Shown here: piece after piece, positions 4,452-39,330 of the stretch | How the letters are laid out: every line of letters starts with the position of its first letter | Position numbering within the stretch: position 1 is the first letter of the stretch | Assembly: GCA_964493115.1 (NCBI GenBank) | Contig: CAZBNF010000001.1 | Span: forward strand, 1,786-65,785 | Direction: 5' to 3' | From: an uncultured Planctomycetia bacterium | Lineage (GTDB): Bacteria; Omnitrophota; Gorgyraeia; JABMRG01 | Length of the DNA: 64,000 nt | Position numbers and translations under genes: made by a program | The notes under the pieces: model-generated | The model's input: only the letters and a program-made list of their open reading frames with translations | Told to the model about the DNA's origin: nothing | The model's database searches: none

Positions 4452-7400
4452 TTACGCGGCTTTTTGTATTGCGCTGTTTCTATTTTTAAGGTTTCTAAGA
4501 TTTGCAGGGTCAATTCTGTTGCTTCTTATATCAACAGCAGGCGTTGTGACCGTGGTTTCTTGTGGAGTCATTAATGTATCGGATGTAATGCTTCTTTGGG
4601 CATTAGCAGATGATAATAATCTCATAACAGCTTTTTCAAGGATCAGGCTTGAGCGATGTTTTTGCTGCAGCCTCTGCAAAACAGGAAGTGCCCTTATATC
4701 TTCTATTTTACCTAATACTTCGGCAAGGCCTTCCATTTGACTTATACTATTAGTTTTTTCTATCGTATTTAGCAAAACAGGCACTATTTCTTTGCCTTTT
4801 TGTGTTAATACCTCTATGGCTTGTTCTCTTTTTTCTAAGGCAAGATGTTCTTCATTATAAGAACCAGCGCTTGAAGATTTCACCTGCATTTCAGCAGTTT
4901 TTGAAAGACTATTAACCCCAACTTCGGAAGCGGGTTTTTGATGCACTATAATATCTATTAAAACTTTGGCCAACACTTTTGGTAAATCATCAATCTCATT
5001 AACTAAAATAAATGGTTTATAAACATCTTTTACGTATTCCATAGCATATCCAATACCTATGCCAATTACTTCTATGTGTTTTCTATGGGCTTCAGCTAAA
5101 TATTTAGTTACACTCTCTCTCCCATTGCCCTGCCCATCTGTAATTACAATAGCTATCTTTGAATCTCCATCTTGACTTTCTAATTCCTTGATTGCCAACT
5201 CTACAGCCTCTGCATCGTTAGTGCCTTGTCCGCGTGCCATATAACTTAGCACTTCACTAATCAGGCTATCCTTGTTTTCATACCGGAATTTCTTGCCAAA
5301 CTCTTTATGAATCCAAGCTCTTTCGCTAAAACCTATTACGCTAAAATCAATATCCAGCCGCGATAGTACTTCTTGCAATAATACCAGGCTATGCATAGCG
5401 TTTATTACCTTATCAGAAGATCCCATTGAACCGCTTTCATCTAAAACAAGTGCAAATTTGAAGCTGCGCTTAGTAGGCTTTACTCTTCTTAACCATATGT
5501 CCATATCTGCGGTTTGTTCCATTTGCATGGCTTTTCTCAAATTTAGTTTTGGCCCGGTAGAATAATCACCTTTATATTTAGGCTTAATGTCTTTATGTAA
5601 TTCATTATCCAAAACACCGAATAACTGTTCAATCAAGCGGGTCATAGGAAGATAGTACTCATCATAACGTGTTAATTTTCTTTTACTATCTTGGTCGAGC
5701 TTCTCTCTAAGCTCTATTTGCTCTAATGCTGAAAGAGATTTTTCGCTTTTAGAAGCTGGGATACTTCGATCCATTAAGCCCTGAGGCTGCCCTACTCCTT
5801 CAGAAATTTTAGATTTACTATCTTTTCGTTCCCGACTTTCTTCTTTAGTAAGTGCGTCTGATGCTGTTTTTTTCTCATCAGTCTTATCTGCGCTACCCTT
5901 TATTACTTGGTTTTTAGTATCTGCTCTGCCGGCATCTTTCTTTACCCTGCTGCTTCCCGCAGTTTTATCTTCGGAAACAGTTTTTTCCAATTCTTCGTCA
6001 ATGGGAAATTTTCGCCCTAAAGCGTCTGCTGCTTCTTTAGATTTTTGTTCAACTTCTTGATTAGCTTTTTCCTGTTGTTGCTGAGAAGAAGCACCCTTAC
6101 CACTAGTTCGACTATTATTTTGCTTAGCTATACTTTTAGAGTCCTCTACGAGCTCATTATACGCGGGCAATATGTTGTGCTTGATAATCCATGCTGCATT
6201 TTGTGCAGCGCTTATTTTTTCTTCTGCGCTAGGGCTGAGATTGATAACAATATGGTGGGTTTCCCCTTCGGATAAACTAATGATTTCTTTATGACCCCTT
6301 GCTGTTGTCAGTACAATTTTATTCTCATCGATGCGCTGTATAGCACTTATATCAGGCTGTCCCAAATATTGCCTTTGCCCTATATGAGGAAGGTCAATAG
6401 ACATTGGTTTAAATACAGGAGAAGAAATTGTTATTCTATTTCCGCGTTCTTTTGTTACTGAAATAGTTCCCGGTAATGTTTCATAGGCCCTAATAGCGTC
6501 TTCCCTGGTTCTTTGCAGGACATCTAAAACGCGCTTATTCTTAATTGCAGGATGCTCTTTACCGTAAAACCAGTGGTGGATCAATCCTAATCCATATTGA
6601 ATATGCGGTAAAACAGTTGAATCATGAAAGGGCTCTTTTTGATCTATGGGGAATGTTTCTTTGTATAGATCTCTAAAGTAAGAAGAAGCCCCCTTATATT
6701 TTGCCATAATCCAATTATTGACCCGTGGATCTTCTACAGCATTAAATAAAAATCTATTTGATTCTGATTCGTGGAATTCGGGGTCAACCCATGTAATGTC
6801 ACGATGGCTGCCCTCATGCATAGCAGTTGCTACGTTGCACCGCCAGTTCTTCTTCATTAAATCCTTCTCAGGAAATACAATCGTGGGCGGGTCGGTATCA
6901 TATGTAATGCCCCATTCGTTTCCTGGATGGGGCTGAACTTTAACATTAAAATCTCCGCCAAAAAATTTCGCGGTTAATTCAATTTTACGCATAGCACTGT
7001 TTACCCGCTGCAGCTTTTGCCAGCGGTTTAACCTGCTAAACCAGCTTAATTCCTGCTGAGCCTCAGTTATATGCAATCCTGCAGAAGATGATTTTTGCGA
7101 AGTCAAATTTTCTGGATTTTTTCCTAGCTGTTCCTGCAAATTCGCTATTTCTTTATACATGCCATCTATTTTCTTGCTTAACTGGGCTAGGGCATCGCTT
7201 GTTGATTTAAGACTTTCTAATTTCTTCTGCATTGTTTCCAGATCATCTTCTGGATCTTTAGCAATTTGGCCTAAGGTTCCTTGCTGTTTTACATTTTTCT
7301 TTAAAATTAAATCTAGCTGTTCTTGAATATCATCAAGTTTGCTTTCAGTGCTTTTGGTTTCAACCGTTTTAGTTTCCAGCTCTTGTTGCGGAGCTCTGGC

Positions 7401-10400
7401 GGACTCCTCTAATCTTGCCTCTTTTTCCTGTCTTTCTTTTTCAGCTTGTGCTTTGTGCGCGGTTTCTGCTTCGGTTGCTTGAATACGGGATTCTGCTTCT
7501 TTAAATTTCTGCTCAAAACGGTCTTTTAATTCTTGCGTTCTTTGTGGATCATGCCTTTCCACAATAACTATCTTTTCTTCAAACAACTTTCTTTCTCTCT
7601 CTAAACCCTCTCTGCTGCCTGCTGAGGATGTCTTAGTAGCCGCGATATTGTCTAGGGACTGCATAATCGACTCTATATCAGACACAGCATTTCCCACGCT
7701 GATTGCAATAGCGCGCTCTGTATCAATCTTTTGCCTTCTGGCATTTATCTCTTTTTCAATATCGGCAAACTCGGCGTACAAGTCCTCTCCATATCCTTGC
7801 TTAAATTCCACGGAATATTTACCCGCATGCTCTTCGGACGCAGCTATCAGGACTATATCATTAACTATATCTTCATTTTTATCTATTATTGACTCTATTT
7901 GTTTAGACTGCTGCCTGCTTAGCTCTTCTAATCTTGCCTCTTTTACAAATAAAGTTCTGGGTTGTGAAATAGTTTTAAAAAACTCATTTGGAATTTCAGT
8001 TTCTTTTGTCTCTCTTTCAGGAGCAGCCAAGTAATGTTTGACTATTGAAATTTGTTCTTCTTCAGGCTGTTCACCAGAAACCCACAGTAAGCTAAATTTG
8101 TTAAGCATGGCCAAAGACAACCTCATTCTGCCTGCATAACTTTCAGGATTCATCGCAGCAAATAACCTAAAGGTGGGGTGTATACGATAAAAACCTTGTT
8201 TCCTCAACTGCGCATGAGCAATACTATCTGCTGTAGCAGGGTCTCGCGTAATGTTACCGCTTTTTAGTATCTCTTCTTTAAGTTTGTTGAATTTAGTATC
8301 ATATAATTTTGCGGGTAAATAAACTTCGTTCTCATGCTCTGTAACCACAAGAATTCCATCATCATCTAAGAGACTATTTATGCGCTCAAGCACTTCAGGC
8401 TCAGCTAAATTTAACTCATCAATGAGAATCCAACTGCCAGTTTCTAATGCTTGGAGCAATGCCCCTGGGTACCATTTATATCGGTTGGTCTTTTCCTCGG
8501 GAATAAACTGACCTATGAGTTCAGCTACATCCGTTTGGCCATCAAGATCTAAACTTATAAAATTTATATTGACAAGATCCGATAGATGTCTTACAAAAGC
8601 AGTTTTTCCGCCTCCTGTTGGCCCGACAAGAAGCATGGGTTCGTTTCTTAGTACCGCCTTGGCTAATTTTTTAAGATACTTAGAGGTAGAAGGTGTTAAA
8701 TCTAAAGGATGAGCAGGAACATAAATATCCCTACGGCCATTTGTTTCAAGATATATATCTCCGAAATATATTTTATTACCCTTACTAGAAATCTGATAAT
8801 CAGTATCATAAAAATCACTGCCAAATTTTTCAGCTAGCGTATCATAAAGATATTTTCTAAGTTCCTCTTGATGCATTTCTTCAGATAATCCATCACCATA
8901 AACTTCTTTGCCCTCTAAAACAGCCGCTCTTCTTAACGTATTTTCATCTTTAACCGTAGTGTCTTTTATGCGGTTCAGCCACCGCATTAAATGTCTAATA
9001 GTATAATATATCTTGCCATCTGCCAACTTTCTCCCTTTCTCTTTTATCTGGAAATGTACATCTAAAAACTTATCTAGAAGCTGGGCAGGGAGCTCCCTTC
9101 CGTAAAGTTCCTTGATGATGTCCATTGTATCGGGGTCTCTACGTAGTTCATCTATCCACTTAACCCTGAATCTATTCATTAAAGCTGGTGAAAATCTTTT
9201 TCTACCAGCATATTCTGCATCAGCGGGATTCATTGTCGCTAACAAACGGAAGTCTGGATGTATGCGGTATAGTTTTGTATCTTTAACCACAAGATACTCT
9301 GCGCCGTTTGAGTCCTTTTTAATCGCATCTGTATTGGATTTAAGTAAAATCTTTTTTTGATCATCATACCTCTCTGCCTGTATCCATTTCTCATTCTCAT
9401 GTTCGGTCACTACTAAAAATCCATCATCGTCTAATAAGGAATTTAATCTCTCAATGATCTGAGACGGGGCAAGATTGATCTCATCTAAAACAAGCCAATG
9501 CCCTTCTCGCATTGCTTCGATTAATATGCCATTGCGCCAAACAAAAACGCCATTTTCATCGGGCTTAAAGCCACCAATAAATTCTAATTTTTCTGTTTGG
9601 CCGCTTAGATTAAATCTTCGGAAATTATTTCGTGATTTATTAGCAAGATATCTTATAAAAGAAGTCTTACCTACGCCTGTTTCTCCTACCAATAAAAGAG
9701 GTTCTTTTAAAATTATACTCAAGGCAATATTGCTGAGATTTAATTTTGTTTGAGGCGTTAAAATAAGTCTTGCAACTTCTTCACTGGGGACATAATCCAA
9801 TGTATTATTTTTATTAACAAGCACTTGGGCACCTTCAATGTCAATTGATTTACTATCAAAATTAATTTCAACAGGCACACGTCCAATCGCATACAATTTT
9901 AAATAATCCAAGTCCAACAACGGGACCGCCATTTGCTTTCCCTTCAAAACATCCTCAATAATCTCTATAAACAGTTTCCTGTCGTTTGTTTTTGAATCCT
10001 CTCCTTTTTCATTTTTATATCTGAATTCTTTGGCATGCAGCCTGTCAATATAGATATAAGCCAGTCCTTTATTAAATGCCTTATTCATGCCAACTTTAGG
10101 GCTCATCATGGAAATATAACGTGATAGAGCCCGCAATTCTCTTATGCTAAACTCATATTCTGCAGTAAAAACTGAAAGTTTTTTAAAAATATCCTGGAGT
10201 TCTGTGTGGAATAAAACCATGGCTTTAGCTGCTGAGTCCAAGGCGTGGCCTTTAATAGTACCTTTTGAATACTCCGATAAATATCCTTTAGTTATTTCCG
10301 TTAATTCTTCAAAAGACATATCGCCAGAAATCCAGATTTCGGTAAATTTATTACGCATTGCTATAGACAGCCTGTTTCTGCCTGCATAATGCTCTGGGTT

Positions 10401-13400
10401 CATTGCTGAAAAAAGTCTAAAATCAGGATGAATTCTAAATATCTTTTCTTTTGTCAGCTTTTCGATTGCCCTTTGCCTCGCTTCTTCTTTGGATACTCCC
10501 GAAGTAATATATTCCTTTATAAATACATCTAATTTCTTTTCGTATTCAACACTTGATATAAGTTTTTCGTTCTCATGTTCGGTTATCACCAAACAAGAGT
10601 CATCATCTAGAAGTGAATTTATGCGCTCTAAAATTTCAGCTTCAGCTAAATTAATTTCATCAAATAGTACCCACCATCCTTCTTTAAGCGCTCTCACTAG
10701 CATACCGTCCTGCCAGAAAAATTCGTTCTTCTTTCCCTCAACAGGAACATATTGCCCAATGAGTTCGGAAGTATCTGTTTGAGCATCTAAATTCATCCTG
10801 GCAAAATTATTTTGCGTAAGATGTGCTATATAACGAATAAATGAGGTTTTCGCACTTCCTGTCGGGCCTACCAGCAGAACTTTTTCATTCATCATAACAG
10901 CCTTGGCAATTCTTCTTAGATAATGTAAAGTACTCTGTGTGTGGGTTAAGATTGCTTCGCGTCCCGGTATGTATGGGCCTCCTCTTTGATTTTTGGGTAC
11001 AACTATATCTCCAAAAATAGAGTCAGATTGCACAATTTGCGGACTTTGGCCTAAAACAGATTGTTTCTCAAACGCTATCCTTATAAGTTCATTGGCCAGG
11101 AAGTCCTGTTCATCTTCATCACGAATTCTATCGCTATAAACCTCCCAAAGCTCTCGCATAAGGATATCATCCCTTTGGTAACCATCTAGAGGCATGCTTG
11201 TATTGTTTTCTTCTAAATCTATTATACGTGCTACTCGTTTTCCTAATTTTAAAAGATCGCGAATTGAATAGTGATACGGATCAACTGCATCTTTTCCAAT
11301 TTCCCGTAGCTTAGCTGCTGTTGATATGCGCTCATGAACAATACCAAGCCTGTCTAATGACCCGTCTCCTGAAATAAAATGCTTTTCAATGTCGTCTTTA
11401 AGGGCACCTGTTTCTTTAGCATAATACTTTTCTAAAAGTACGAGTTTTTTTTCTGTGGTGGTAAGCTCATCTATCCACTTGACCCTAAATCTATTCATAA
11501 GAGCGGGGGAAAGAATTTTACGCCCTGCATATTCAGCAGGATTCATTGTTGCAAATAAACGGAAATCGGGATGAACACAATAAATCCTTCTTCCGTCACT
11601 ATCTACAAGATAGTTAACTTTTCTAAACTCATCGAAGAACTCTTCAGCTCCCTGTCTTTTTTTCTCTTCATATACTCCGATAGACTTAAAATGCTCTCCT
11701 AAGTGTTCTGCCAAAACCAATGTGCGATCATCGTCTAAAAGCGAGTTTAGTCTTTCAAGAACCTGTGATTCTGCAAGATTTAACTCATCCAAAACCAGCC
11801 AATGCCCATAAAGCATTGCCTCTAACAGTATTCCGTCTTTCCACTTAAATACTCCTGATAGATCCGGCTTATATCCTCCTATAAATTCTGTTTTATCGGT
11901 TTGGCCGCTTAGGTTAAATCTCCTAAAACTGTGCCTGGTCAAATTAGCTAAATATCGCACCAAAGATGTTTTGCCTACGCCTGTTTCTCCTATTAATAAA
12001 ACAGGGTCATCTAATAATACAGAAAGAGATATTTGTTTTAGGGCCTTGACAGTATCTATAACAGGGATTAATTCAGAATTTTCTGATTCAGGAATAAAAA
12101 CTTGCGTATTTCCTGAATCCTGTAATGGCGCGGGTACAAAGATTTTATATATAAGAGCGCCGTTGTCCAACCGCTTGATTGCGTCTGGCCGCAATGTTTT
12201 TAGCATATCATCTTTGCTTGTAGCTTCTTTTTTTATACTTGCCACTATATTATTACTTTCAAGTAACGCATTACGATATTTTTTAAAGGTCTCTATTATC
12301 AAAGGTCCATAGCTTGATAAAATTTCCCTAAATCCAATCCATTCTCTCTTTTTAATTTCATCACCATATATTGCTTTTATAGGTTTATATACGATTTCTC
12401 TAAATGTAGTTGCGGCTAAAATAGTAAAACTGGAAATAAAATAACCAAAAGCTCCTCCGGTAATCGCGCCAAATGCAATCTGTGTCCACTGCGGAACCCA
12501 CCCAATAATAGGAATTACGGGCAGGCTGTCTATTTTTGCAGTATGGAATAGCGAAATATTGAAAATTATACCCAATATAAAGCCTGATAAAAGCGTAAGC
12601 TTGCCATACCACGTATTAAAATAATTAAGTTTTTCTTCTGATTCAAATGGGAAGTGAATAAATTTGCCTTCTTTCGTTTTTTCAAGCAATGAATAAAAGT
12701 CCTCTAAATCCAATGCCAATTTTTTATATCGTGCAGAAAGTATTTGTAGCTGCGGTAAATAAATAAGATAATATGATTGCCCGAGTAAATCTAACAGGCC
12801 AAAACTAATTCCAAATACCCCCGAAAATATACTTAAATAAGCAGAAAATACAAGTATACTGCTAGTTGTGTATAAAGCTAAAATTACGGGCAAAGTAAGC
12901 AGGCCTGCTACAATAGTGCCTGTGACTAAATAGGTAGCGGCGTTTTCTTTATTGAATCTCCAAATCCTGCTTCCAAATAGGTATCCCAAAAAAGCAATTA
13001 AAGCTGTGCTTAAGCTAAAAGACGAAGCTTGCAATATAAAAGGTGTAGCAAAAATCATTACTGCTGAACTAATAAGAAGTAAAGAAATTATTGTTGATTT
13101 TTTCTTTAAAAACCCAAATATACCCAAATAATCTCCTGAACTGTCTTTTAATCTAATAAGTCTTTGCAAAGTCTTATCCCATGGCAATTTATCGGGGCGC
13201 TTGCCAGGGTTTTGCGAAAGACGCGGTATAGCTTTCTGTTCCCATTCCACCCATTCTAATTTTTCTAAAACCAAAGCTGAAGTTAATCTTAAATCTTGAT
13301 TATCATCGCTTAGAAATACCGCCAGCTTAGCCGCAAATGGTGTAAATTCATTAACAAAATTCTTATCCCTTGGGTCAAATACCTGACTTAACGTTTCCAT

Positions 13401-16400
13401 TGCTGCTTGTTTTATTTTTGAATTAGGGTGTTCTAAAGCTGCATCAATTAATTCAAGGGCAATGCCTTTTGGTAAAAGAGCAAAACCATATATACCATGG
13501 ATCTGCTTATCTGGATTAGTAAGATTAGAAAAAATATGGATTAAATATTTTTCCCGAAGTTCTTTGGGAAAGCCTAAGGTTAAATCAACAAACTTAGCGG
13601 CTAACTTCTGTGAGGCTATATCCATGCCTTCGCTTTTTCCCTGGCTAATTAGCTCATTAAAACTTACGCCTTCCCCTAAAAGCTCTCTTTCCTCTTCAAC
13701 GCTAATCGCCTCAAGCCCCCCAATACCAGACTGGACTGCCTGGGTAAAAATTGGCCCTAGTATTTCTTTATAAAATATATCCTTATCCCCTGAAATATGT
13801 TCTTTTGTTCTGGCAGCTGACCCATATAATCTGTCACAATATATATATATAGCGCCATCAAAAATAGCTCTATTTATTCCCCAATACCAAATATTATGAG
13901 GATCTGTCTTGATTTGTTCAAAAAATGCTATGGATTGCATGGTTTTTTCTATACCAGACTGTAATTCCTTCTTATATTCTTCTATCTTCTGAGGATCGCT
14001 TATCTTTGTTATCTCTTCTTTTATCTTAATTATCCGGGATGCTAGCTTTTGCTTATTGTCAGCATTTTTTTCTCTTTGTAGCAGACCTTCTAACGGGTTT
14101 AATTTTACTTCTTTGAGTTTTTCTATATATTCTTGTTTTTTTACAGGATCGGATATCATGGTTAATATTTCTCGTTTTTCATTTAATTGCTGCCTGTTAT
14201 CCTCAACTGATTTCGCAATAACTCCTTCACCAATCTGCATAACTAGATTTCTAATAAACTCAGCCCAATCCTTTAGGTCTCTAAGGCTAAAGTTATAATC
14301 TTCAGCATTTCCAGATAAAGCAAGCCTATTAAATCTATTCTCTCTGATCTTATTCAAAATAGACATATGGACTGAAGCCATAACTTCTATTATAGTATCC
14401 AAAGATTTGCCTTGAATAGGCGGTCCTTTAAATAAACCTTCTTTGGCCAAATAAAAACGTATAATTTCTTTTAATTCTTCGGGGGAAAAATCCCCGCTAA
14501 ACCATTTTTCAATAAATTTATTTTTCATTGCTAAAGACAGCCTATTTCTACCAGCATAATGCTCTGGATTCATAGCAGCAAATAGCCTGAAATTTTCATG
14601 AATACGGCGTAAATTAGCCATATTTTCACCATTAGCTTTTTTTTCATCATAAACATAACCAGGAATCCAGACTTCCCCTTTATGCTCAGTCACTACTAAT
14701 GAACCATCATCATCTAAAAGTGAATTTATGCGCTCTAAAATCTCAGGTTCTGCTAAATTAAACTCATCAAGAAGAAGCCAGTACCCTTCTTTCATTGCCC
14801 TAATCAGATCTCCATCCTGCCACAGAAACTCGGAAGTCCCCTCTTTGGGGATATTTTTACCGATTAAATCTCCAATATCGGTTTGACTATCAAGGTTAAG
14901 ACGAATAAAATTATTCTTTGTTAAATAAGCAATGTTTGTAAGCGAAGCTGTTTTTGCACTTCCTGTCGGGCCCACCAGAAGAAGGTTTTCTTTCATTTCA
15001 ATCGACCTGGCTAAATTTCTTAAATTTTTCTTCGTAGCAGGAATGGGGGCCAACTCTGCTTTGCTGGTAGGGATAAACAAGCCACCCTTCTTATTAATAG
15101 GTAAAGCAACGTCTCCAAAATACACTTTATTTTTAGGCTCATCTATTTTTATCTCTGTGTCAACCTGCGGAGGTTCGCATCCAAATACTTGTTCTTTTCT
15201 AAGCAGGCCCTTAAACAATCTTTGATCTGCTTCTGATTTCAGGCTATCGCCATAAACTTCCTGCGCCTCAAGAGCAAGCTGTTTGTTGATAATTTCAGGG
15301 GAAGGGATATTGCTAAGCCTAGATAGCCATTGCTGGATACGTAAAGCAAGCCTAAAGAATTGCCTAATTGTAAAATAATAAGGCTGGCCAATTTCCTTGC
15401 CTAATTCTCCTTCCTTACCAGAAATACCGGCTAGCTCAGCGTAGAAATTGGAAAGCCTGTTAATTATATCATCGTTTAAATGATATTTTTTTCTTAAAAT
15501 TTCGCATATTTCATCTTGAGTAAAGTTTCGTATCCATTTAACCCTGAATTTATTCATTAAAGCAGGCGAAAGCTGTTTTCTACCCTCATATTCGGGAGGA
15601 TTCATTGTAGCAAAAATCCTGAAATTAGGATGTATTCTAAAAATACCCCTCGCAGACAGCTGAGTAATAGCCTGTTTAATCAGATTTTCTCTTGTGCCGG
15701 TATGGCTACCTGCATATTCGTTAACCAATTTATCATAATCTTTAGCTTGCAGCCATTGCTCTCCTTTATGTTCATTGATCTTTAAGTAGCCCTTTGGTTC
15801 AAGAAGATAACGAATACGTTCGATTACTTCTGGTTCAGCTAAATTAATCTCATCTAGAACGAGCCAGTGTCCTTTCTGCATTGACTCAATTAGAATGCCA
15901 TTGTACCATTCAAACTTAACCCCTTTCTGTTTATCAAGGCCCTTTTTATGAGCAATTGCCTCTGCAACATTGGCAACCAATTCCCATCTACGGGCGCTTA
16001 AGGCATCTTGTATTAGTTTTTTGGCTTTTGGAAAAGATATCTTGCCTCCAGTAATTAATCCTACTGATTCGGCCAATATCCGCTGCTCCTGTCTTGTCGA
16101 TGCTGCCACAGCTTGATTAATAATATCAATTGCGTCTTCCCGCGTTAAATATGTATGCGAAGGCTTAAAGCCTCCGATAAACTCCAGCTTATCAGTTTGA
16201 CCATTAAGGTTAAAGCGTCTAAAAGCATTTTTAGTTAAAAAAGCCAAATCTCTAACCAGGGATGTCTTGCCAACACCTGTTTCACCTATTAAAAGAACTG
16301 GGTCATTTAAATCTACTGCCAAGGCCACTTTTTCAAGATCCTCTATTGTCCTGGGTATAAGAACAAGTTCTGCCGACTGCCTGCTAGGTATATATTCGGA

Positions 16401-19400
16401 ATCAGTAGAAACATTTATTTTTATTTTCAGATCACCAATTGTTATATCTCTATCGTTTTTAACAATATTGTTTATAGCTTGTTCTTTAGACAAAAGCGCT
16501 AATAAATCAATTTTTCTACCCTCTTTATAATCTGCCAATTCAAGAACTTCTAAATCTAGACTCAAAGCATTTATATTATAATAAAATCTATCTTTATCTT
16601 TTTGGTTTTCCATGCGGTCAGCATAAACATAAACAGCACCTTTTATAAATGATGTGGCAGCCCCCCATTGGGTGTGAAAACGTTGATAAAATTTAGCCCA
16701 TTTATAGAGTTCCCTTAAAGTGAATTCATAAGGTTCGAGCTTGTTTTCTCCTATATTCCTTTTGTGAATATCTGCTACCATTTTTCTGTGAAACCTTACC
16801 ATAAGATTAGCTATTTTAGGCTCTATATCATATTTTGTTCCAAGATAAGAAGCTATTCTTTTCGAATGCAAATCTTGCCATAGAGATATTACTTTATCTC
16901 TTAACACAACCATTATTGCAGCGGATAAACCGTGCTGCAAATCCTTAGGGTAAAACTGCCTAATGTACTTAATCAGTAAATCTGGAATTTTCTCTATTCC
17001 ATAATTCTGGGCGTACGTTAAGATCTCATGGAATTTTCTATCATCGAGATCATTATCTGCTTTGAGCACAGAAAGAACTTCTTCTTGTTGGCTGGGTACG
17101 AAAGAAAGGAAACGCATTATTTCATGACGGAGAACGGTAAGCTCCTCTATCACAGGAGGGGCCCTCCGATTTAAGGATTCAACTAAAATATGCTGTAATT
17201 CATGCTCTATTTCCATAAATAACAAATAGTAAGATTTAAAAGCATCTTTATCAATTATAATTTCGTGAGTATTCTTGTCCAAATGCATAAGGCGGTCATT
17301 GCCTGTAACAATTTTGATTTTGGTTATTTTTTGAATTGCCTGTAAATTTCCCGACGCGGCTAATTCAGATAAAACTTTTTCCAGCATTCCCTTTTCTTTA
17401 GAGGTAATTAAGTCCTTGTAGTTGGAATTTATTCGTAATTCTATATTCAATCCGCTTCTAATAAATGCTTCTGCAATAATCATAGGTTTTTGGTTTAAGC
17501 CAACATGCCTTAATATGGATGACGCTTTCCTTTTAGTTTTCTGTTCTCTTATATATTTAATAAATCCAAATAAGCCCCCAATACCCACCAAGATTATAAG
17601 ATATGACGGGGCTAATACTCTCGCCCATTTTTTTATTTCAGGCCATGTAACATAATTGAAGTGGAGGTTTTGATGAGTCTTTTGCGCTTCCAGATAATCT
17701 ATTTTCCATAAAACTGCTTTAGCCAAGCCGCTTAATTCTAGATCGGACTTATCCCAAATAGAATTAGTAAGCGCTCTTTTTGAAGGAGCGCCTATTCTAA
17801 CAAGAACATTAAGAAGAGCCTGCCTTGTTAAGGGGTTTTCATTACGTAAATTTGCAACCAATTCATCACAAGCAGGCTTACCTATACTTACTAAGGCCTC
17901 TGCTGATAGTTGTCTTGTCAGGACATCTTTGCTTTCCAAACCAACAATAAGGGCTCTAACTCCTTGCGTATCCAGCATCTTTATAGCGTTTAAAGCATGG
18001 GCCCGTTCAGTTTCCGGAGATTCTTGAGAAGCTAACACTCTTACTAATCTATAGACAATTTGCGAGTTGGACTTTTCTTTTAACTCTGCAATCGCGGTTT
18101 TTCTAATATTTTCACCATGATGTAGAATTCTCTGCAAAAATCTGTCTATGTACACATTATCAAGAGCAATTATCTCTTCAATTGCCTTGGCAGTAGTTAA
18201 CCTAACATATTCATCAGGATCATTTAGAGCCTTATTTAAAAATATTTGTATGTTTGGAGGTGAAAGCCTGCCCAAAGAAAAAACCGTTTGCCTGCGTACA
18301 TAAGGATTCGGATCATCTAAATAAGGCGTTAGCGAATTAATAATCTCCTGAGAATAGCTAAAATTACCTAAAATATTTGCAGCAACCGCCCTAACCCGCC
18401 AATCAGAATCTCTTAAACTTGCGGCTATCCTATGAGCAACTAAATTTCGAAATTGATAATTAAGAGAGGCTCTTTCCAAGCTAACTATTGCTGCTTTGCG
18501 CACAAATAGATCATCATCCTGCAGGCGTTCCATCAACGGGCCAATGGATTGCGCAGTATCAAAGCCTCCATTAGAGCCCAAAGCCTGAACCGCAGCCTTA
18601 CGCACTCGTACTGATTTATCATTGGTAATGCCGATAAGCGGGCCCACGGCTTGCTTGTCCGTCATTTGAGCTAATGCAATAGCTGCTCTCCAGCGAACAT
18701 CTTCGTTTTGGTTCTGTAAAGCCGGAATAAGCAAATTAATTGATGCGTCAGGGTTGTTGATATCCAACAAGGCGTTTAAAGCGCCTTCTCTTACCGTGTA
18801 AGCATCAGAGCCAAAAGCTTGAATTAAAGAAGGAATTGCAGGAACGCCTATCCTGGTAAGCAATTCTACCGATTGTTTTCTTGCAGAAGGATTCCAATGG
18901 TTTAACCTCTCCACAAGAGGGCTCACTGCTTCGGGGCCGATTTTCGCTAAAATATTTTGCGCTTCTTCTCCAGTTTTTTCATGATCAGAAATCCGAAGAA
19001 GCGGCATAGCAGCAGGCCGGCCTATTTGGACAAGCGCTTCTTCGACAATGCTTCTTTTTATCTCGAGATTACGAGAACCATAATAAGGACGATTATGTTC
19101 AGCTTTTAAAGGATAGATTAGATGCTCGCCTGATATAGTGCTGTTTTTTAAAATTCTAATAATGGGCCTTACCGCTTTTTCTGCCCGTAATCTGCCCAAA
19201 GTTTGTATTGAGATATTTACTATATCGCTCTCTCTGTCATCCAGCCTTTCTATAAACGGTTTGATTATATCAGGGCTATTACTTCTTGCTAAAACCATTG
19301 CTGCTGTGCGGCACACCTCATCGTCGTTGTCTTGCAGTGCTTTAAGCAGTATGGGTGTAGGATCAGCCCCGCTTATATGTATTATCGCCTCAACAACTAC

Positions 19401-22400
19401 TTGAATGTCAAAATCTTTATCATAACGACCTTTTGCCATTAATAGCAATGGCTCTACAGCCCTGCTGTCATTCAGTTGAGTTAGTGCGTCAATGGCTATT
19501 TTCCAATTTATGCGCCTATTTTGCATGGCATTTATAATCGGTTCAACCGCTGCTTTATCACCTATTATTCCTAGAATTTTAGCTGCAAAGTCAGCCCTGT
19601 TAAGCCCATCCCTTCTATAAGTATGGTGTCGGCTCGGGCCATCTAATGCACTGATCAGAAAACTTACCGCTGGTTTTCCCATATTTACCAGTGCGTTTTC
19701 ATCATAGTTATCTATAGATCTTAATATGCTGGCTTCTTGAGAATCTGTCTTGACACGCGCTAGAGCCTTTACAGCGTGCTCCCTTATTTCCCAATCGCTA
19801 TCGCTGGATGCCCTCATTAAAAAATCTACTGCTTGAGGGTTATTTAATTCAGAAACAATCTCCACAGCCCTTCGCCTAACACTTGGATTATCATTAGAAA
19901 GAACCTTGGATGCTGCTTGCATTACCTGCTGAGGATGATCTTTGCCAATTCTAACTAAAGCTGCCTTTGCAGTATCTTGATATTGAGAGTTATTAATATC
20001 ACGTAACATATCCGCCAAACTAGATAACGCAGGTCTTCCTATTCGCACAAACGCATCTGTAACTTTGCTTTGAAGTTCTGAATTCAGGCCTAGTATTTTC
20101 TTTAACAATTCAGTATCTGTAGTATTTTCTATAACACCTAACCTGTTCAATGAAGCAACGGCTGCGCGTCTTACCTCATAAGAACTATCGTTTAATGCTT
20201 CGATTAAAGGCTTAATAGCCTGGCTGTCGCCGCAAATGCCCAAAGCCTCAGCAGCAGCTTCTCTTATAGATGTTTCTCTGTCCGATAAGGCCTCAATAAG
20301 TGAAATGATTATTTTCTGATCCCGCGAACCCCGCTGTTTATGCTCCGTCAACCCTTTTATGGCTGTAATTCTATTCGCTGATTCTTTACTAGAAAAATAA
20401 ACAGCGGTTTTATAGCCTATGAAACCAGAAATGCCCGAAAATGCTATAACTAAAAATAAGGCTACACCACTTACGGGGCGTGATAATTTCTTTTTTATAA
20501 TATATCTCACTGTAGCAAAAAGTGACAAGAAGCCAAGGAACCCAAATGTTACCCACATGGTTGTTATAGATATGTTGTTCAGTAACTTTGCAAGTTCGTT
20601 TACAGATGGGCTGGATTTTTTTAATAGTTCTTCATGCATACCAATGCTATAGAGTAAATAAAAGCAGTAAACCATGAAAAAAACACTAGCAGCTGTTATT
20701 TCTTTACCTACTCTTTTCTCTTCTATTTGTCCTTTAATAAATTCTTCTGTTTTTTCAACCCCCTTTATAAATCCGCTTATAGGATAATAAATTAGGTATT
20801 TGCCAAAATAATAAGGCAGCAATACTGTATGCTTGATAGCTTTACCTATGCCCTTGCCTACGGCTTTAGAATTCTCAACACTTGCCTTAATAAGATAACC
20901 TGCTCCCACAATAGAGCCTAAACCAAGAATGCTAAGGCCTATCCATTTAAAAACCATGCCTGCCAACCGGCGCCGTTCGGCTTCCACGCGTTTACGTTCT
21001 GCCTGCTCCTGCTCTCGTTTAATTCTCTCTTCTTGGCGTTTACGCTCTTGCTCTATTCGGGCTGCTTCTGCTCGTTTTTGACGCTCTATTCGAGCTTTTT
21101 CTTCTTCGAGTCTTTGTTGCTCTGTTTTTTCAGGTGTTTCAACCGTCTGTTGGGGGATTGCCTGAGGCCTCTGCCTCACAGTAGGCAACTCTATCTTGGT
21201 TTCCTCCTCACTTGGCTGGGTGGTTCGCATAATATGTTCTTCTGGAACAGGCTGTTGTGCATGTATTTGCGGCGTAAATCCTAACCAGGAAGAAACTATA
21301 ACTAACCCCATCAAAAACATTTTGGGGCCCTTAAACCAGCGTTTGGCCCTATCTAACATTCCTGATTTTGGTAATTTAGATTTACTGATAGCCTGATTTA
21401 TGTTTTGCTCTTCCTGGTTTACTCTTTCAAGGAGATTTTTTAATTCTTTGATAATTTCACTCTCCGGGCGCCTCGCTGTCTTGCTAATTCTATCAATCTC
21501 ATATGATGAATTTAATACATCTTTAATTATTGCTCTTGTATCTTCAAAAGGCTGTGTAAGAATATAAACATCAACTTCTCCAACTAAAGAAATCCACCTC
21601 TCCCAGCTTGCTTTTGTCACAAGAAATCTTATCGCATCCCGCCCACCAGCCTCAGCGAGAGCGATTGTAATTGCTCTCATCAATTCTATCTTCAATCTTT
21701 CGTTCCCAATAATGCTAAGTGGATATTTATCAATTAATGTTTGAACAATGTAAGAACGCTTCTCCGTCTGCGTAGGGGTTGCTAACCCAGCCCCGATTTT
21801 GCCTAATGCTAAAATTGCTTCTAAACCAGTCTTACCTCCACTGATAGAATTTGTGAGAGGCGCAATAGCTTCTTCTGCACCGACAAATCCTAATGCGCGA
21901 ATTGCATTAACCTTTATGCTATCATCTGGGTCAAGACTGGTTAAAGATTTTAACAATATCGAAATTAGTTCGGGGTCTATTTGAATTTCCTTTATTCTAT
22001 CTATAAATTCAACCGGTGGTTGAGTTAATGCGCGTGACTCTGGAAACTTTTTATCAAACATATCAGTTCTATCTTTAAACTCGCATAAAAGCGAAATTAT
22101 TTCTACCTTAGGATTTCTTATCTTAAATTTAGCCAATTCCAGGGCAGATAGTCTCAGAAGATCCCAGTTAGATTCTTTGTCGTTTAAAATATCCAGCAAA
22201 GGTTGTTTAATAATCAGCTCTCTTGATATCTTAACTAACCTCTTTAATCTCTCGTTTTTGCTGGCAACGGCAAGCGTTGTGTCATTTTTGGTTTCTTCAA
22301 TTTTCTTATTTAATGCTTCTTTAACAATGTTTTCATCCATATCTTCTATACATTCAATTATAAAATTTATAATCTCTTTATCGGATTCTTCAAAAAAAGC

Positions 22401-25400
22401 AAGAATAAGCAGCTTAATTATGTCATTTGAACGCTCAAGGACTTTTGTTTTATTTTTATCTAAAATATATAGAATTAGTTCCGAGGCCTTAAGCCCTGCA
22501 GGGTCATTTATTTTCCTTAGGCTGCGGGCAATATGCTTTTTGACTATCCATAACGGATTTTCTAAGCAACGCATTAATTCTAAACCCCCAGCATTACCAA
22601 GTGCAGCCAAACTATCTTCAGCCTGTGTTTTTTTGGTGTCTACCTGGGTTTCTATTACATTGATTAATGGATCGATTGCTCGTAAATCTTTTGCTTTAGC
22701 CAAAGCGTGACCTACTATAAGAGGGTTTACATTTTTTCCTTCTCTCCAGCTATTTAAGAGATACTCTAAGGCCGGTTTTCCTAAAGCAACAAAAATATCT
22801 AACACTTCTGATTCAAAACGGTCGTAATCATGCCAAGGAATACTGCGCTCCTTTTCAATTAACAACCTAACTATGGGAAGACCAATTGCAATCAAGCTGT
22901 TTCTCGCAGCCAAACGTTTTTGCTCATTCTCGCTTACTAAACTATTAACAAACTCTTCTATTTCCTTCTGAGAAAACTTTATTTTAGTCTCTGTTCTTTC
23001 GTCCCTGGGAACTTCAGGCGCTTTCTCGATTTTTGCTTTTGAAATGGGCGGAGTAACTGCAGGCGGAGCCTTTTCTACTACTGGCGCTGTTTCAGCTTTT
23101 ACTTCAGAAACAGGCGGCTTAACTTGAAGAGCTGGGGACTTTACTTCAACTTCTGCCTTCTTTTCAATAACAGAAAGCACTTGCTGAGCCTTACTCGCCT
23201 GCGGCTCTTTGCCTAAGCGGGCAGCGTTTTGAAGGTATTTTATAGAGCCCCTGTCTTTCTTCCCTTTTTGATATGAATCTATTGCTTTAAGTACTCTATC
23301 TATAAAATCCTTATCTTCAGGGATACCATCTTTAATTGGCTGGACATAACTCATCCTGACAGCATTGCTTTTATGGTAAATTCTATCTAAAGTAAGTATA
23401 TCTGGTAACAGCCGAAGCGCATTGGGGTTATGGACACTATAGAATGCGTACTTAGCCCACTCCTGAACCTCTTCTGATTTGCTATATAAAGCATCTTTTA
23501 AAAATAGGAATCCTTCTTTATCTCCCAGTTGCATAAGAGCCCCCGCAAGAAGTATACATGCTTCGCTGGGACCATACCCCTCAAGGAGCTTATCTTTGCC
23601 TGCACTTTTTAGATATTCGCTGCTTTCTCTCGTAGCATATTTATCAAATACTTCTCTTATGCCCATTATCGCAGGGTCACCGATTGTATCGACAATATGC
23701 TGAAGAAGGCTTTTTAATGTTTTCGTACTATTTTCACGCACGCGACGCCACCCTGCGGGATCTTGCTGATATTGATGCTCAATTAGCGACGCAAATATTA
23801 ACCTCATCAAAGAATTTAAAGTACGGCTTATGCCTATAGGGCTGCCAAGAACACATAATAGGTGGGCAATTGAATTTAAAAAATCATCGCTATAGCTTAC
23901 TTTTCGGTTAATTGGTTTACCTTGAACATCATTATCTTTAATATAATAATAAGGATGGGCATATATTTCTTCAAGATATCGTATTGCAGAAAGCCTTATG
24001 TTTTCCAATTTTAATATATTTTCAATTACATCTCCACCAACACCATCTACATATAGTTGCATTAGCTCTCTTAAAACTGCACTATCGATTTCTTCTAACG
24101 ATTCCCAAATCTCTAAAACTTTTTGCATTTCTTCCGTGTTATAAAAACGCACCGCAGGATCTTCTAATCCGAGATCTTTAAGAGCTTTTTCTATAATAAC
24201 ACGTACATTTTTCGCACTAATAAGTTTTGGTTTTTCTTCAACAGGGGCTGTTGATTCTGGCTTAACTATTGGTTTGGTCGGAGCTTCTTCTACTACTGGC
24301 TCTGTTTCAGCTTTTACTTCAGGAACAGGCGGCTTAATTTTTTCAATAGGCCAGATTCTGGCAAAACCGCGCCAGGTCCAAGGATCTTTTCTTGGAAAAG
24401 AATCTAAAATTTCTTTATCCACGCCTATAGGCGCTAAACCCAGGCCTGCAAGCCTGCTTTGATAGGCAGTTTCTGAATCTGTCGGCACGATTTCAGATGC
24501 CTTATTCTCACGGCTAAGCGGTGGAAGTGTTGCGGTATATTCCCTTGCGTATTTTTTCTGAAAATACCCAACAAGCCCGCCATTAGGTGCATAAAAATTA
24601 GAAACAAAACCTAACCAGACTTGCTTAAATCCTGTATCTTGAGCGTATTTTGTTAAAGTCCCTATTATCTGTTCGCCAACGCCTGTAGATTCCTGAAGAT
24701 TATTAAAGGGGGGATTTTTCTCTCTCGGTTTAGGCATCGTATGAAATGGGCCTGCATCCTTAGAGGGCAGCTGCAAGGCATCGATAAGTAAAACAGCTTG
24801 ATTGTCTTTGTTTCTGGCAGCTGCTGTATAGACATTTCCTGCCCACTCCCACTGTCCTTGCGTAAGTTGTTTATACAATCTAAATTTTAAGAAACCCGGG
24901 CTGCGAATGTGGCCAAGAACATACTTTAAAAAAGGAGAACCATTGGCAAAGCCTGGGTCAGTACAATCCGCGCTGATATAACCCCCAATTAAATCTAAGA
25001 TATCACGCGGCGCTAAAACAAGCTTGTATTGACGGCCATTATAAGTAAAACCTAATCCGTTTTCTATAGAAGAGGGTGTTGCATCAAAAGATTCCTTTAA
25101 TCCGGCCTGCCTTTTAAACTGGTCGTAATCCTGCACAGAAAGCATATCCTCTTTTTTTATTCTTCCTCCTTGGGAAATGCTGCTGTAAAGGCTCTCTATT
25201 ATTCGGCTTAAAGAAGCGTCTTTTTTTGCCAGGTCAATTAACATTGCCTTAATTTCTGCTTTTGAGTCTTTAAAAGGATACAAGTTATTAAGCACAGCCC
25301 AAATATTCTGATCATGCTGGGGGATATTATCAAAGAGCTGGCTTATCATATATTCGGGAGTTCTTCTTCTGGCCTGTTCTTTCGCCTCTTCTTCTGTCAT

Positions 25401-28400
25401 GATTTTTGTTTCATAGATTTTCAATATATTCTGCTGAAACTCCCTGATATATTTAAGGATCTCGTATGTAGCAGGCCATCCCTTCTTACTTACCAAGTCT
25501 TCTGAAAATCTTATTCCGTCTTTTCCTAAACTTGCAAGCAAGCTGCCTTCTGGCTTTCCGCCTACAGAAACAATGTGTGCTTTGTATAAGGCATTCTTAA
25601 AATCCAAGTCCAGGCCGCCGGGATAGAAAGAATCCCCCATAATAAGCAATGCCTCGCCAGGGGTTTTTTGCTGGTATTTTTCATCAACTACATCCCTGAT
25701 GAAATGCTCTGCCGCAACAGCTTTGTTTGCGCCTGTTGTTAATATATGTATCGTGCGCCCGCCTGCTACGCGGGGAACAAGCGGCCAGCCGTTAGCTTTA
25801 AATAAATCTATCAATTCCCCAAAGGCCTTTTTCCTATCCTTAAGGCCGGATACTGTAAGAAGTCCCTGCCTGTAATGCAATTTGGCTTTAGAGTCTATTT
25901 TTTCTCTTATAGCTTTGGCTATTGTTTTTTCGCATTCTTTATTTGTAGCAAGAGGTGTATTTTCAGAGGCATCATAAACAGGCGTATCTATTAAATTGCC
26001 ATTTTCGTCAAACCTATTGCATCTTGCGCCTGCTGCGGTATAAATAGTAAGATTATTCAGTAGCTTTTTATCTTTTGCTGCTGCCTTATCTATAATATAT
26101 CTTTTAACTTCATCTAGTCCCTGCGTGGTAATTAACGCGATTTGAACCCCTTGCCCTAATAAAGAGAGCAGTTCATTTAGCATCTTCATATCAATTTCTT
26201 TTGTAACATCGGTAAGGGTGTTGTCTATATCAAATATCATTGCACGATAAGGTTGAGGCGGGGTAGCCTTAGGCAATATTACCTTGGGCTTTTCTATCTC
26301 TTCTTTTTCTTTTCTAAGCCGGGAAAGCTCTTGCTCTAAAGACTCTTTTTGCCCTGCCAGCTTTTCAACATCTAAAGCAAGAGTTTGCCTTTGAGACTTA
26401 AGCTGAGTTATTTCGGAGTTTAGTTTTTCGTGTATTTTCTCTGATTGAGATATCTCACTTCTAATACCGTCTAATCGTGCGCTTAAGATTTCTTTTTCTT
26501 TGGTCAGCATGGCTAATGCCGACTGCTGTGCTTGCGTTACAGACTTTAAGGACTGCAGTTGTTGCGTAATACCACGTAAGTCCTGCTCAAGCTGGGATGT
26601 TTTTTCTAAAAGCGAGTCCTTTTGTTTGGTAAGCCGGCTCACTTCCTCTTCAAGCGTGTCTTTTTGTTTCTGCGCTGACTGGAGTTCCTCATTTTTCTGA
26701 GTAATCTGAGCGAGCAGATCCTGTATTTTGGAGTTTAAATTATCTATCTGCGAGACCTTATCGCTTGCCTTGTCTTTTTCAGCAGTTTCTTTTTCACCTT
26801 TTTCACCAATAATTTCAGCTGCTTGGGCACGTAAATTAGTCAATTTTTCTGTAAGCGCAGACAGCTCGTTTTGCTCTGAAGATAATTTATCTTCAACAGC
26901 TTTTTTACGCTTAGCAAGCTCTGCGATGTCTGATTCATACTGGGTTTTTTCAGCGCTTAGCCTGCTAAGACCCGAGTTTATACTGTCAAGTCTATTCTTG
27001 GCTTCTTTAATATGCTGGTCGGATTTTTCTTCTTCAGCCTTAAGCGTTGCTATCCTATCTTCAAGTGCCTTCTCTTGCTGCTGCTTCTTTTTAATCTCAG
27101 AAACAAGGATTGAAAGAGTATCGCGGGCCTGCGGTATCTGTTTTTGGATATTGTTTAATTCTTCCTGAAGGGAAGTTCTGTTATCTGATAGGGTGGATAT
27201 TTCTTTTTCAATAGATGCTCTTGCTATATTAAGATTTTGAACATCTTGCTCAAGAGCGGACTTTGTATTTTCAAGGCTCTGTATCTGCTGTTGCGGGCCT
27301 GCAGCTTCTGGTGCGCTTGCTTGGAGTTTTTCTTTTTCCTTTTTATCTATTGCTGATTGTATGTTTATAAGGCGCTGTTCTAAGTCGGCTATTTCTTTTG
27401 TTAGGTTGTTTTTTTCCTGTCTTAATCGGGCTATTTCATTTGATAGAGCCGTATTCTCTGATTGCAGTTCTTTTTCTCTTGTGGCAAGAGCCTGTATTTT
27501 TTCTTTAAGACTATCCTGGTCTTTTAATAGTTGATCTATGTCTTCTTGAGGAGCTTTAGGCTTTTCCTGTACAATGGCTGCGACTGCCTCTTGTCTCTTA
27601 GAGGCCCTGGCCATTAATCGTGCCTCTCCCATTTTAAATAAATAAGGCTTAACAGGGAGATTAAGTTCGTCTAAGAGGGCTTTCTTTTTCTTTAATGTCT
27701 CTTCGCTTACAGTAAGAAGTCCTATGTATTTCCCTTCCCCAACATCTATTCCTAACTCATTTTTTATAAAATCTGCTCTTTTGGCTAAGTCTACTTTTGT
27801 GTATCTTGCAAGCCGCTGAACATATTTTGCCTGCATATTTGCCCCTAGAGACTCGAGTAGAGCTTTTTGTTTTTCAGGTGTTGTTTGTGCAGGCGGGGCC
27901 CTTGGCTCAGTTTTTTCTAAAACATCTGGGGCAACCGGTTTTTCGCTTATATCCCCTTTTAAACCTTCCACTTGCTTATATAAAGCATCTACTGCCTTAC
28001 CCATTTGGGCAAGGGCATCTCTTGCTGCTTCAAGCTCTTTTAATTGTTCTCTTGCGGATTTTAACCATTCTGTTAAATCTTCATTTTCAGCAGGCGGCTC
28101 TGTAATCTTATGTTGTTTTGTCATACCATCCAGAAATACACCTAGTTGCTTTTCAACATCATCGGTTTTTTTCTCAAGTTCTGTAATTCTTTTTGCATTA
28201 TGTTCGAGATCCTCGGCAGGGTCTGCATCTATTTTTTTAACTTCTCTAACAGGTGGTATTGCAGCGGCGGCCACTGGCTTTTCTGTTGGTTCTGCGGGTT
28301 TTGCAGGTACTGCTTGCGCTACTGGTACTGCAGGTGCTAATGGTTTTGCAACCGCAGGAGCCTCTTGAGGTTGTTGATGTGCTTCAGTATCCGGTTTTTG

Positions 28401-35168: not shown

Positions 35169-39330
<4,162 letters not shown>

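Follow-up and report, generated by a model that had tools for sequence, protein, structure and literature searches.

The 64,000-nucleotide stretch of contig CAZBNF010000001.1 analysed here (the window) is a segment of a bacterial chromosome beside the replication origin, with dnaA, dnaN, gyrB, gyrA, parA/parB and a yidC that carries a periplasmic domain. Placed after gyrA is a single uninterrupted open reading frame (ORF) for a giant protein of 8,586 amino acids (aa) with six ATPase modules of the AAA_5 type. The subject of this report is a block of predicted transmembrane (TM) helices lying within that chain of modules, between the second and the third of them (AAA2 and AAA3). The coordinates of all features are compiled in Table 1.

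Table 1. Features of the giant gene and of its product; coordinates refer to the window
Feature	Window	Strand	aa	Remarks
Giant ORF	4452..30212	(-)	8,586 aa in total	stop codon within coordinates; colinear with 7,557-aa P0121
T3	28593..28661	(-)	518-540	most hydrophobic segment of the protein
T4	21264..21323	(-)	2964-2983	internal signal-peptide-like segment, then HA/QQ
TM cluster T5-T8	20412..20957	(-)	3086-3267	four helices
HEAT-repeat array	17643..20315	(-)	3300-4190	~890 aa, between T8 and T9; HEAT_2 E 4.4e-88
TM helix T9	17559..17618	(-)	4199-4218	second tether, directly upstream of motor; equivalent helix in P0121
Midasin-type lid preceding AAA1	16584..16841	(-)	4458-4543	AAA_lid_7, E 1.6e-8
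AAA1-AAA2 pair	14223..16370	(-)	4615-5330	Walker A/B intact
Soluble part of AAA2-AAA3 insertion	13137..14222	(-)	5331-5692	coiled coil splitting AAA2 lid; HEAT-like segment
Conserved membrane module	12333..13136	(-)	5693-5960	alignments A1/A2, profile search, AF2 model
TM helix T10	13032..13097	(-)	5706-5727	in to out; N-flank KKK
TM helix T11	12969..13022	(-)	5731-5748	out to in; first half of the hairpin that relatives lack
TM helix T12	12873..12935	(-)	5760-5780	in to out; second half of extra hairpin
TM helix T13	12792..12860	(-)	5785-5807	out to in
Conserved cytoplasmic loop	12600..12791	(-)	5808-5871	
TM helix T14	12537..12599	(-)	5872-5892	in to out
TM helix T15	12405..12482	(-)	5911-5936	out to in
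AAA3-AAA6	8013..12074	(-)	6047-7400	Walker A/B intact; odd/even module types alternate
HExxH domain between ring and vWA	6183..6995	(-)	7740-8010	conserved
C-terminal vWA domain	4953..5453	(-)	8254-8420	VWA_2 E 8.3e-8; DESGS (DxSxS) MIDAS motif

Over the whole protein, the Pfam family AAA_5 is matched with an E value of 2.4e-134 in 7 stretches. Both nucleotide-binding motifs are intact in each of the six modules, Walker A being located at aa 4643, 5081, 6075, 6449, 6843, and 7197 and Walker B at aa 4785, 5147, 6140, 6516, 6908, and 7263. In pairwise scoring, AAA1, AAA3, and AAA5 resemble one another, as do AAA2, AAA4, and AAA6, and the chain is therefore regarded as a triplicated (odd, even) pair. 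Matches to other families of the MoxR clade comprise AAA_3 (E 2e-27) and bpMoxR (E 6.3e-21). Midasin-type lids (AAA_lid_7) occur in three stretches (E 7.8e-34), with one more before AAA1. That additional lid is of the "even" kind, and AAA6 is apparently without a lid of its own (aa ~7390-7420); a circularly permuted lid may thus serve to close the ring. In the soluble part of the AAA2-AAA3 insertion, the HEAT-like segment corresponds to positions 25-95 of the profile built from the region. Between the ring and the metal ion-dependent adhesion site (MIDAS) lie ~850 aa, which contain a coiled coil, an HExxH domain, and a charged K/E/S-rich stretch and for which no family match was obtained. The VWA_2 match itself spans aa ~8254-8361, with the DESGS motif at aa 8258. 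The HExxH domain is kept in all relatives, including the archaeal protein P0008 (HE..H...NAVEDPRVNNW), and may act together with the vWA domain as a metallopeptidase-like partner. Two HExxH motifs are present in the protein, MHEGSH at aa 7799 and IEHELQH at aa 4337, the latter within a second domain of this kind (aa 4240-4440; window 16893-17495); no Pfam or NCBIfam family was matched by either domain.

The original prediction, which had been made from the letters of the window, placed a multi-TM block of ~8 helices at positions 12400-13250. This interval translates into aa 5655-5938 and lies between Walker B of AAA2 and Walker A of AAA3. The block is present at this site and is conserved in relatives, and all six peptide strings quoted from it were recovered in the protein; the number of helices had been overestimated, with six being found both by hydropathy (aa 5706-5936; window 12405-13097) and in an AlphaFold2 (AF2) model. 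The module as delimited here starts with a GDYLG motif, followed by the helices T10-T15 with an interposed cytoplasmic RYK.L.L..DFY loop, and ends with an E.(I/V)YKP exit motif. Residues that are invariant or nearly so (R, Y, P, L, D, F, L) occur in the module only within that loop. A Pro/Trp-rich segment, SLPVIPIIGWVPQW, precedes T15 and is probably interfacial. Counts of hydrophobic windows were dropped as a significance test, because the 21 runs of 19-residue Kyte-Doolittle windows at ≥ 1.6 in the whole, Ile/Leu-rich protein are nearly matched by shuffled sequences (mean 11.7, maximum 23). Instead, the length of charge-free runs, clustering, and conservation were used. Charge-free runs of 51, 43, and 42 aa occur in the block, to be compared with a longest run of 24.3 aa on average and of 43 aa at most in 1,000 shuffles, and the block is the 232-aa window of lowest charge in the protein (9.9% DEKR versus a median of 28%). 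The AF2 model calculated on the family alignment (pLDDT 62.8, pTM 0.54) has six helices, all of them long, where they had been predicted, while the model from the single sequence (pLDDT 45) is usable for secondary structure only.

Relatives were retrieved with the sequence of the whole motor, which matched P0001-P0007 at 35-53% identity, then an archaeal protein, and then eukaryotic midasins at ~25%. The module is found at the same AAA2-AAA3 junction in P0001-P0006, P0121, and P0122, of which P0004 starts and P0006 stops within it, and it is also contained in the fragments P0123, P0124, and P0169. The family shares the motifs GDYLG.F, Y.VIYLPQY..RYK.LPL..DFY.LL, ADSLPV.P, and E.IYKPL. When a profile of the region was compared with 1.84 billion cluster representatives, the membrane part was recognized in about nine (P0001, P0004-6, P0121-124, P0169); the remaining matches were confined to the upstream HEAT-like segment. 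A homologue search with the insertion alone gave no match, but here the word prefilter had produced a false negative, as the module-bearing proteins P0001-P0006 are in the same database. The single-segment locus search among the GTDB species representatives gave no confirmed locus for the module. Another full-length giant, P0121, has 7,557 aa; it is colinear with the window protein, and its TM candidates occupy equivalent places. The order AAA2-module-AAA3 recurs in independent metagenomic proteins from ENA, JGI, NCBI, and Logan. By the overall count, ten metagenomic sequences besides the window protein bear the module, complete or partial, wherever they include the junction. From the relatives with the same junction, the small number of representatives, and the colinearity of P0121 it is concluded that the module is real, conserved, and very narrowly distributed; by its rarity it is usable as a marker of the family.

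Relatives in which both halves are complete mostly possess four helices, arranged two plus two around the conserved loop. The window protein differs from them by an insertion of ~50 residues that corresponds to exactly one extra hairpin (columns 213-263 of alignment A1; also alignment A2). Mean frequencies of the top residue are lowest in the helices (0.32-0.46) and highest in the GDYLG flank (0.60) and the central cytoplasmic loop (0.50). A below-threshold likeness of the module to the ComEC/Rec2 membrane domain (Pfam PF03772, 18.2 bits, cut-off 23; NCBIfam TIGR00360, 19.2 bits, cut-off 36.5) was rejected as an identification, because it stays below threshold in both libraries and spans the hairpin that the relatives lack. 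In two relatives the equivalent gene is split. For P0002 (L001, contig of ERZ795054), a 3,448-aa HEAT-repeat ORF is located 72 bp upstream, and P0001 (L002, Logan ERR10755942) starts inside AAA2 after a 2,851-aa ORF. Probably a frameshift or a break in the assembly has divided one giant gene in each case, and lengths given in databases therefore underestimate the true protein sizes in this family.

Concerning topology, the numbers of K/R residues across the flanks of the module helices in the window protein are 3/0/3/0/long K/R-rich loop/1/3, and among 11 family sequences the central loop contains 5-12 and the C-flank 2-7 such residues, with 0-1 and 0-2 in the short loops. Since the two versions differ by one hairpin, the helix count is even in both (six and four, respectively), and an N-in/C-in orientation of the module is predicted, as expected from the K/R pattern. 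The stretch from AAA6 to the vWA domain contains no TM helix. The even helix count, the alternation of K/R, and the lack of an intervening helix together assign the six AAA modules and the vWA domain to the cytoplasmic side, where the AAA modules have to be located in any case because they require access to ATP. Thus, in agreement with what had been expected for a genuine block, the AAA and vWA domains come out on one and the same, K/R-rich, side of the membrane and not on opposite sides.

The protein would thread the membrane repeatedly, as had been proposed, with 15 candidate TM helices in total. Two further clusters that had been named are real, the one at ~17560-17650 being a single helix (T9) and the one at ~20400-20960 consisting of four (T5-T8); four more candidates were added (aa 80-98, 206-228, 518-540, and 2964-2983). 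T9 has 6 K/R residues in its C-flank and is out-to-in by charge; the HEAT-repeat array preceding it would therefore be outside. By helix parity and the positive-inside rule, this array is predicted to be extracytoplasmic; the same reasoning places the T7-T8 loop (RYIIKKKLSR) inside and gives T4 an in-to-out orientation. In giant proteins of Omnitrophota, HEAT repeats have been found only in regions predicted to be extracellular (10.1101/2023.11.21.568195), a pattern with which the outside location of the present array agrees. P0003, P0005, P0006, and P0121 likewise have, immediately before AAA1, a TM helix and then a lid. Signal-peptide anatomy, with a K/R-rich n-region, an h-region, and an A-x-A/Q site (the slash marking the putative cleavage point), was observed internally at window 29529-29597 (aa 206-228; ...ASMSNA/QTQP) and 21258-21323 (aa 2964-2985; ...TPQIHA/QQPV), and P0005 has ...GSPIMA/QDKETP twice, at aa ~470-498 and ~783-811. 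Cleavage by signal peptidase I might thus yield several products from the giant protein. Between T4 and T5, at window 21000-21260 (aa ~2986-3085), about 100 residues are almost all E, R, K, or Q (…EEEKARIERQKRAEAARIEQERKRQEERIKREQEQAERKRVEAERRR); this stretch resembles an ER/K single alpha-helix spacer, is predicted to be outside, and is conserved in kind in P0121.

The block is most reasonably, and with somewhat better than even confidence, interpreted as a conserved integral-membrane module, and not a channel, whose hairpins are inserted at an AAA-pair junction of a midasin-like (odd, even) x 3 motor. The hairpins, two in the relatives and three in the window protein, would enter and leave the membrane from the cytoplasm, and the whole motor would probably be sewn onto the inner face of the cell membrane. 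The module would be an anchor dedicated to membrane attachment, and its conserved juxtamembrane region on the cytoplasmic side (GDYLG, Y.VIYLPQY..RYK.LPL..DFY.LL, E.IYKP), rather than the helices, would be the functionally important part. The ring, the HExxH domain, and the C-terminal MIDAS/vWA domain would reside in the cytoplasm and the HEAT solenoid upstream of T9 outside. Based on what is known about midasin and the MoxR-vWA systems (PMC7159879, PMC3495828, PMC13036017), the MIDAS domain would grip a target via its metal site, and ATP-driven movements of the ring would remodel or pull this target at the membrane. Targets could be partners, or even parts, of the same surface-exposed giant protein. 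The site of insertion would be a sensible one, being a junction between duplicated AAA pairs. The archaeal protein P0008, which is free of TM helices, has a large soluble insertion of its own at the other junction, AAA4-AAA5. A coupling of ATP hydrolysis to a membrane process, as had been suggested in the original prediction, is possible.

Direct results of the analysis are the features of the sequence and how they are conserved, an even number of helices, the bias in charge, and the lack of a known transporter fold; from them we infer actual insertion into the membrane and a remodelling function. Several points weigh against this interpretation. The giant protein is known here from its sequence alone, and the closure of the six modules into one ring is an assumption drawn from it. 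Topology was assigned from hydropathy, helix parity, and the positive-inside rule. Some relatives show a fifth hydrophobic peak at the Pro/Trp-rich segment ahead of the last helix, and the helix count would become odd if this segment truly spanned the membrane. T1 and T2 both look N-in and can therefore not both be used as annotated, so that the topology of the N-terminus is only provisional. Finally, the AF2 family model is of moderate confidence and is based on 11 sequences, by which the negative fold searches are weakened.

Among the alternatives, the one preferred in the original prediction, namely that the helices form a channel or transporter with gating or transport driven by the surrounding AAA+ modules, is considered improbable. 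It could draw on the compactness of the six-helix block, on the ComEC/Rec2 likeness over aa 5699-5791, and on the outer Pro/Trp-rich segment (ADSLPV.P...WPP), which is conserved in several members and might be a re-entrant element; however, the helices are the least conserved regions of the module, the invariant and near-invariant residues are all in the cytoplasmic loop, and the number of helices varies among the family members. In a Foldseek comparison of the AF2 module model with the PDB, no match was obtained at E ≤ 0.001 (best E 3.5, TM-score ≤ 0.21), a result that is suggestive, not conclusive, because of the moderate quality of the model. With poorly conserved helices of variable number and no transporter fold, the idea of a channel-like module is not supported. 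An outright artefact, in which misassembly or read-through has fused AAA, membrane, and AAA genes, or in which the helices are merely the buried core of a soluble domain, is hardly credible. Its proponents could refer to the splitting of the equivalent locus into two ORFs in P0001 and P0002, indicating that assemblies of this gene are fragile, and to the fact that single hydrophobic windows are common in a protein of this composition. Against it stand a reading frame that is unbroken over 25.7 kb in DNA of 38% GC, the recurrence of the AAA2-module-AAA3 order in the independent metagenomic proteins, the colinearity with P0121 across the junctions, and, for the block, the low share of charged residues over 232 aa together with the alternating K/R bias.

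Attractive but unlikely is a transmembrane coupling in which the tethers, T9 and the module, would pass movements of the ring to the outside HEAT solenoid or outside signals to the ATPase, in a manner resembling inside-out signalling. This idea is purely architectural. T9 would make a direct connection between the HEAT array outside and the motor's lid/AAA1 end, an arrangement that recurs in relatives; the motor would be fixed to the membrane at two points flanking AAA1-2; and the published restriction of HEAT repeats to predicted extracellular regions of Omnitrophota giants would fit. The coupling could not be rigid, because a domain of ~240 aa containing an HExxH motif is situated between T9 and the lid. 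The outside loops of the module comprise just 3-20 residues. A further reading, put forward here as distinctly speculative, would be a new class of prokaryotic motor, in which a single-chain six-AAA+ ring integrated into the inner membrane would use ATP to move the outside HEAT solenoid, for instance in extending, retracting, or loading an arm for attachment or predation, with MIDAS as the cytoplasmic grip and with a triplication of the AAA pair independent of eukaryotic midasin and dynein. If true, it would be a transmembrane force transducer of a new type.

With regard to the genomic setting, genes for a response regulator (304 aa; receiver domain and a C-terminal half without family assignment) and a PilZ-domain protein (446 aa) follow the giant gene immediately and share its strand (window 2048-4302, (-)). 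They may be co-transcribed with it, which would hint at control by cyclic di-GMP or a two-component system. Both gyrase subunits are enlarged by inteins, gyrA (window 31316-35149) encoding 1,277 aa and gyrB (35169-39032) 1,287 aa; Intein_splicing is present in both and a LAGLIDADG_3 homing endonuclease domain in gyrA. The G+C content of the giant gene (0.35-0.41; window 4001-30000) is below that of its housekeeping neighbours (0.42-0.47; 30001-64000), with a minimum of 0.353 at window 12001-14000, over the membrane module. The top matches of DnaA among the GTDB species representatives are two metagenome-assembled genomes (MAGs) of Candidatus Omnitrophota, at just 50-52% identity, and the nearest relatives of the giant protein are annotated as Omnitrophica/Omnitrophota; on these grounds, the host is probably a member of Omnitrophota without a close sequenced representative.

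Summarizing, the window would encode a rare, conserved motor of the MoxR/midasin type, in a single membrane-integrated chain within a multi-pass giant protein of the Omnitrophota style, with a function that can be proposed from its parts. Known AAA+ rings of the MoxR/midasin/dynein clade are either soluble or attached to membranes peripherally. A six-module chain interrupted by a conserved membrane module would be a new way to place such a motor, and for this ATPase family no description of a six-module chain broken by a membrane block was found in the literature. The module of 230-290 aa, with its sharp motifs, offers a testable handle on the organisation of multi-pass giants in Omnitrophota. 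The single-chain combination of six AAA_5 modules with MIDAS is documented for bacteria, together with a version free of TM helices in an archaeon, and the fact that the modules do not map onto AAA1-6 of midasin bears on the origin of midasin and dynein.

The closest characterised counterpart is midasin (Rea1/Mdn1), with which the window protein shares six AAA_5-type modules in one chain, AAA_lid_7 lids, and a C-terminal MIDAS vWA domain, which lies beyond a long and perhaps comparable non-AAA region with a highly charged stretch. As the original prediction had stated, nothing comparable to the membrane block came to light for characterised MoxR or midasin proteins; at E < 1e-10, the sequence matches among solved structures are soluble midasins only (E ~1e-134), and literature searches on TM insertions between AAA domains led to just the N-terminally anchored machines of the FtsH and YME1L type. 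Midasin itself is soluble, nuclear, and without TM helices, whereas the window protein has 15 candidates, six of them inside the AAA chain; its distance from ring to MIDAS is ~850 aa with an HExxH domain, as against a linker of ~2,000 aa in midasin; and it has large N-terminal HEAT, coiled-coil, and HAD-like parts, which midasin has not. AAA2-6 best match AAA3 or AAA5 of midasin whatever their position, and in comparison with P0008 odd modules match odd and even modules match even. From these patterns the hexa-AAA chain appears to have been concatenated independently. The window protein is not a midasin orthologue, as there is no module-by-module correspondence with midasin AAA1-AAA6. A soluble nucleoplasmic role on pre-60S particles is argued against by the bacterial context (dnaA, gyrAB, parAB) and by the candidate TM helices. 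Literature searches on bacterial midasin-like proteins yielded nothing relevant.

With the MoxR-vWA systems RavA-ViaA, CbbQ-CbbO, and NorQ-NorD, the AAA+ clade and an obligatory MIDAS-vWA partner are held in common, and several of these systems work at the inner membrane (PMC3893208, PMC13036017). In these systems, subunits with one AAA module each assemble into homo-hexamers, the vWA protein is separate, and attachment to the membrane is peripheral, whereas the window protein combines its six modules and the vWA domain in a single polypeptide that would be membrane-integrated. FtsH and YME1L are comparable by analogy only, their anchors being N-terminal and present once per subunit of a homo-hexamer; neither they nor membrane adenylyl cyclases show sequence or confident structural homology to the window protein.

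The Archaeovorins (West-Roberts et al. 2023, 10.1101/2023.11.21.568195) share with the window protein a probable origin from Omnitrophota, many TM helices with alternation between cytoplasm and outside, HEAT_2 repeats in regions predicted to be outside, and AAA_5 and HAD-type domains among the frequent domains. Archaeovorins exceed 30,000 aa (gene > 90 kb), and the window protein remains about four-fold below this threshold; Pfam scans of the whole protein revealed no glycosyltransferase, methyltransferase, glycosyl hydrolase, peptidase, NUDIX, or SecA_DEAD domain, all of which belong to the Archaeovorin content. By length and domain content it is thus not an Archaeovorin, and the description of that group includes no six-AAA ring interrupted by a membrane module (10.1101/2023.11.21.568195). 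In the 2023 preprint AAA_5 appears only as one of the 20 most frequent domains (10.1101/2023.11.21.568195); PF07728 and vWA are unmentioned in the 2026 preprint on Omnitrophota giant proteins, and neither preprint mentions midasin, dynein, or MoxR.

The archaeal protein P0008 (4,005 aa, from a Thermoproteota MAG) has the same (odd, even) x 3 array of AAA_5 modules, the same HExxH...EDPRVNN domain, and a C-terminal vWA domain; it differs in lacking TM helices and in its soluble insertion of ~830 aa at AAA4-AAA5. According to a stated view, the six-AAA chain arose early in eukaryotes (PMC3495828), and prokaryotic single-chain hexa-AAA/MIDAS machines, if true, would bear on it. Together, P0008 and the window protein place single-chain six-AAA/MIDAS proteins in both prokaryotic domains.

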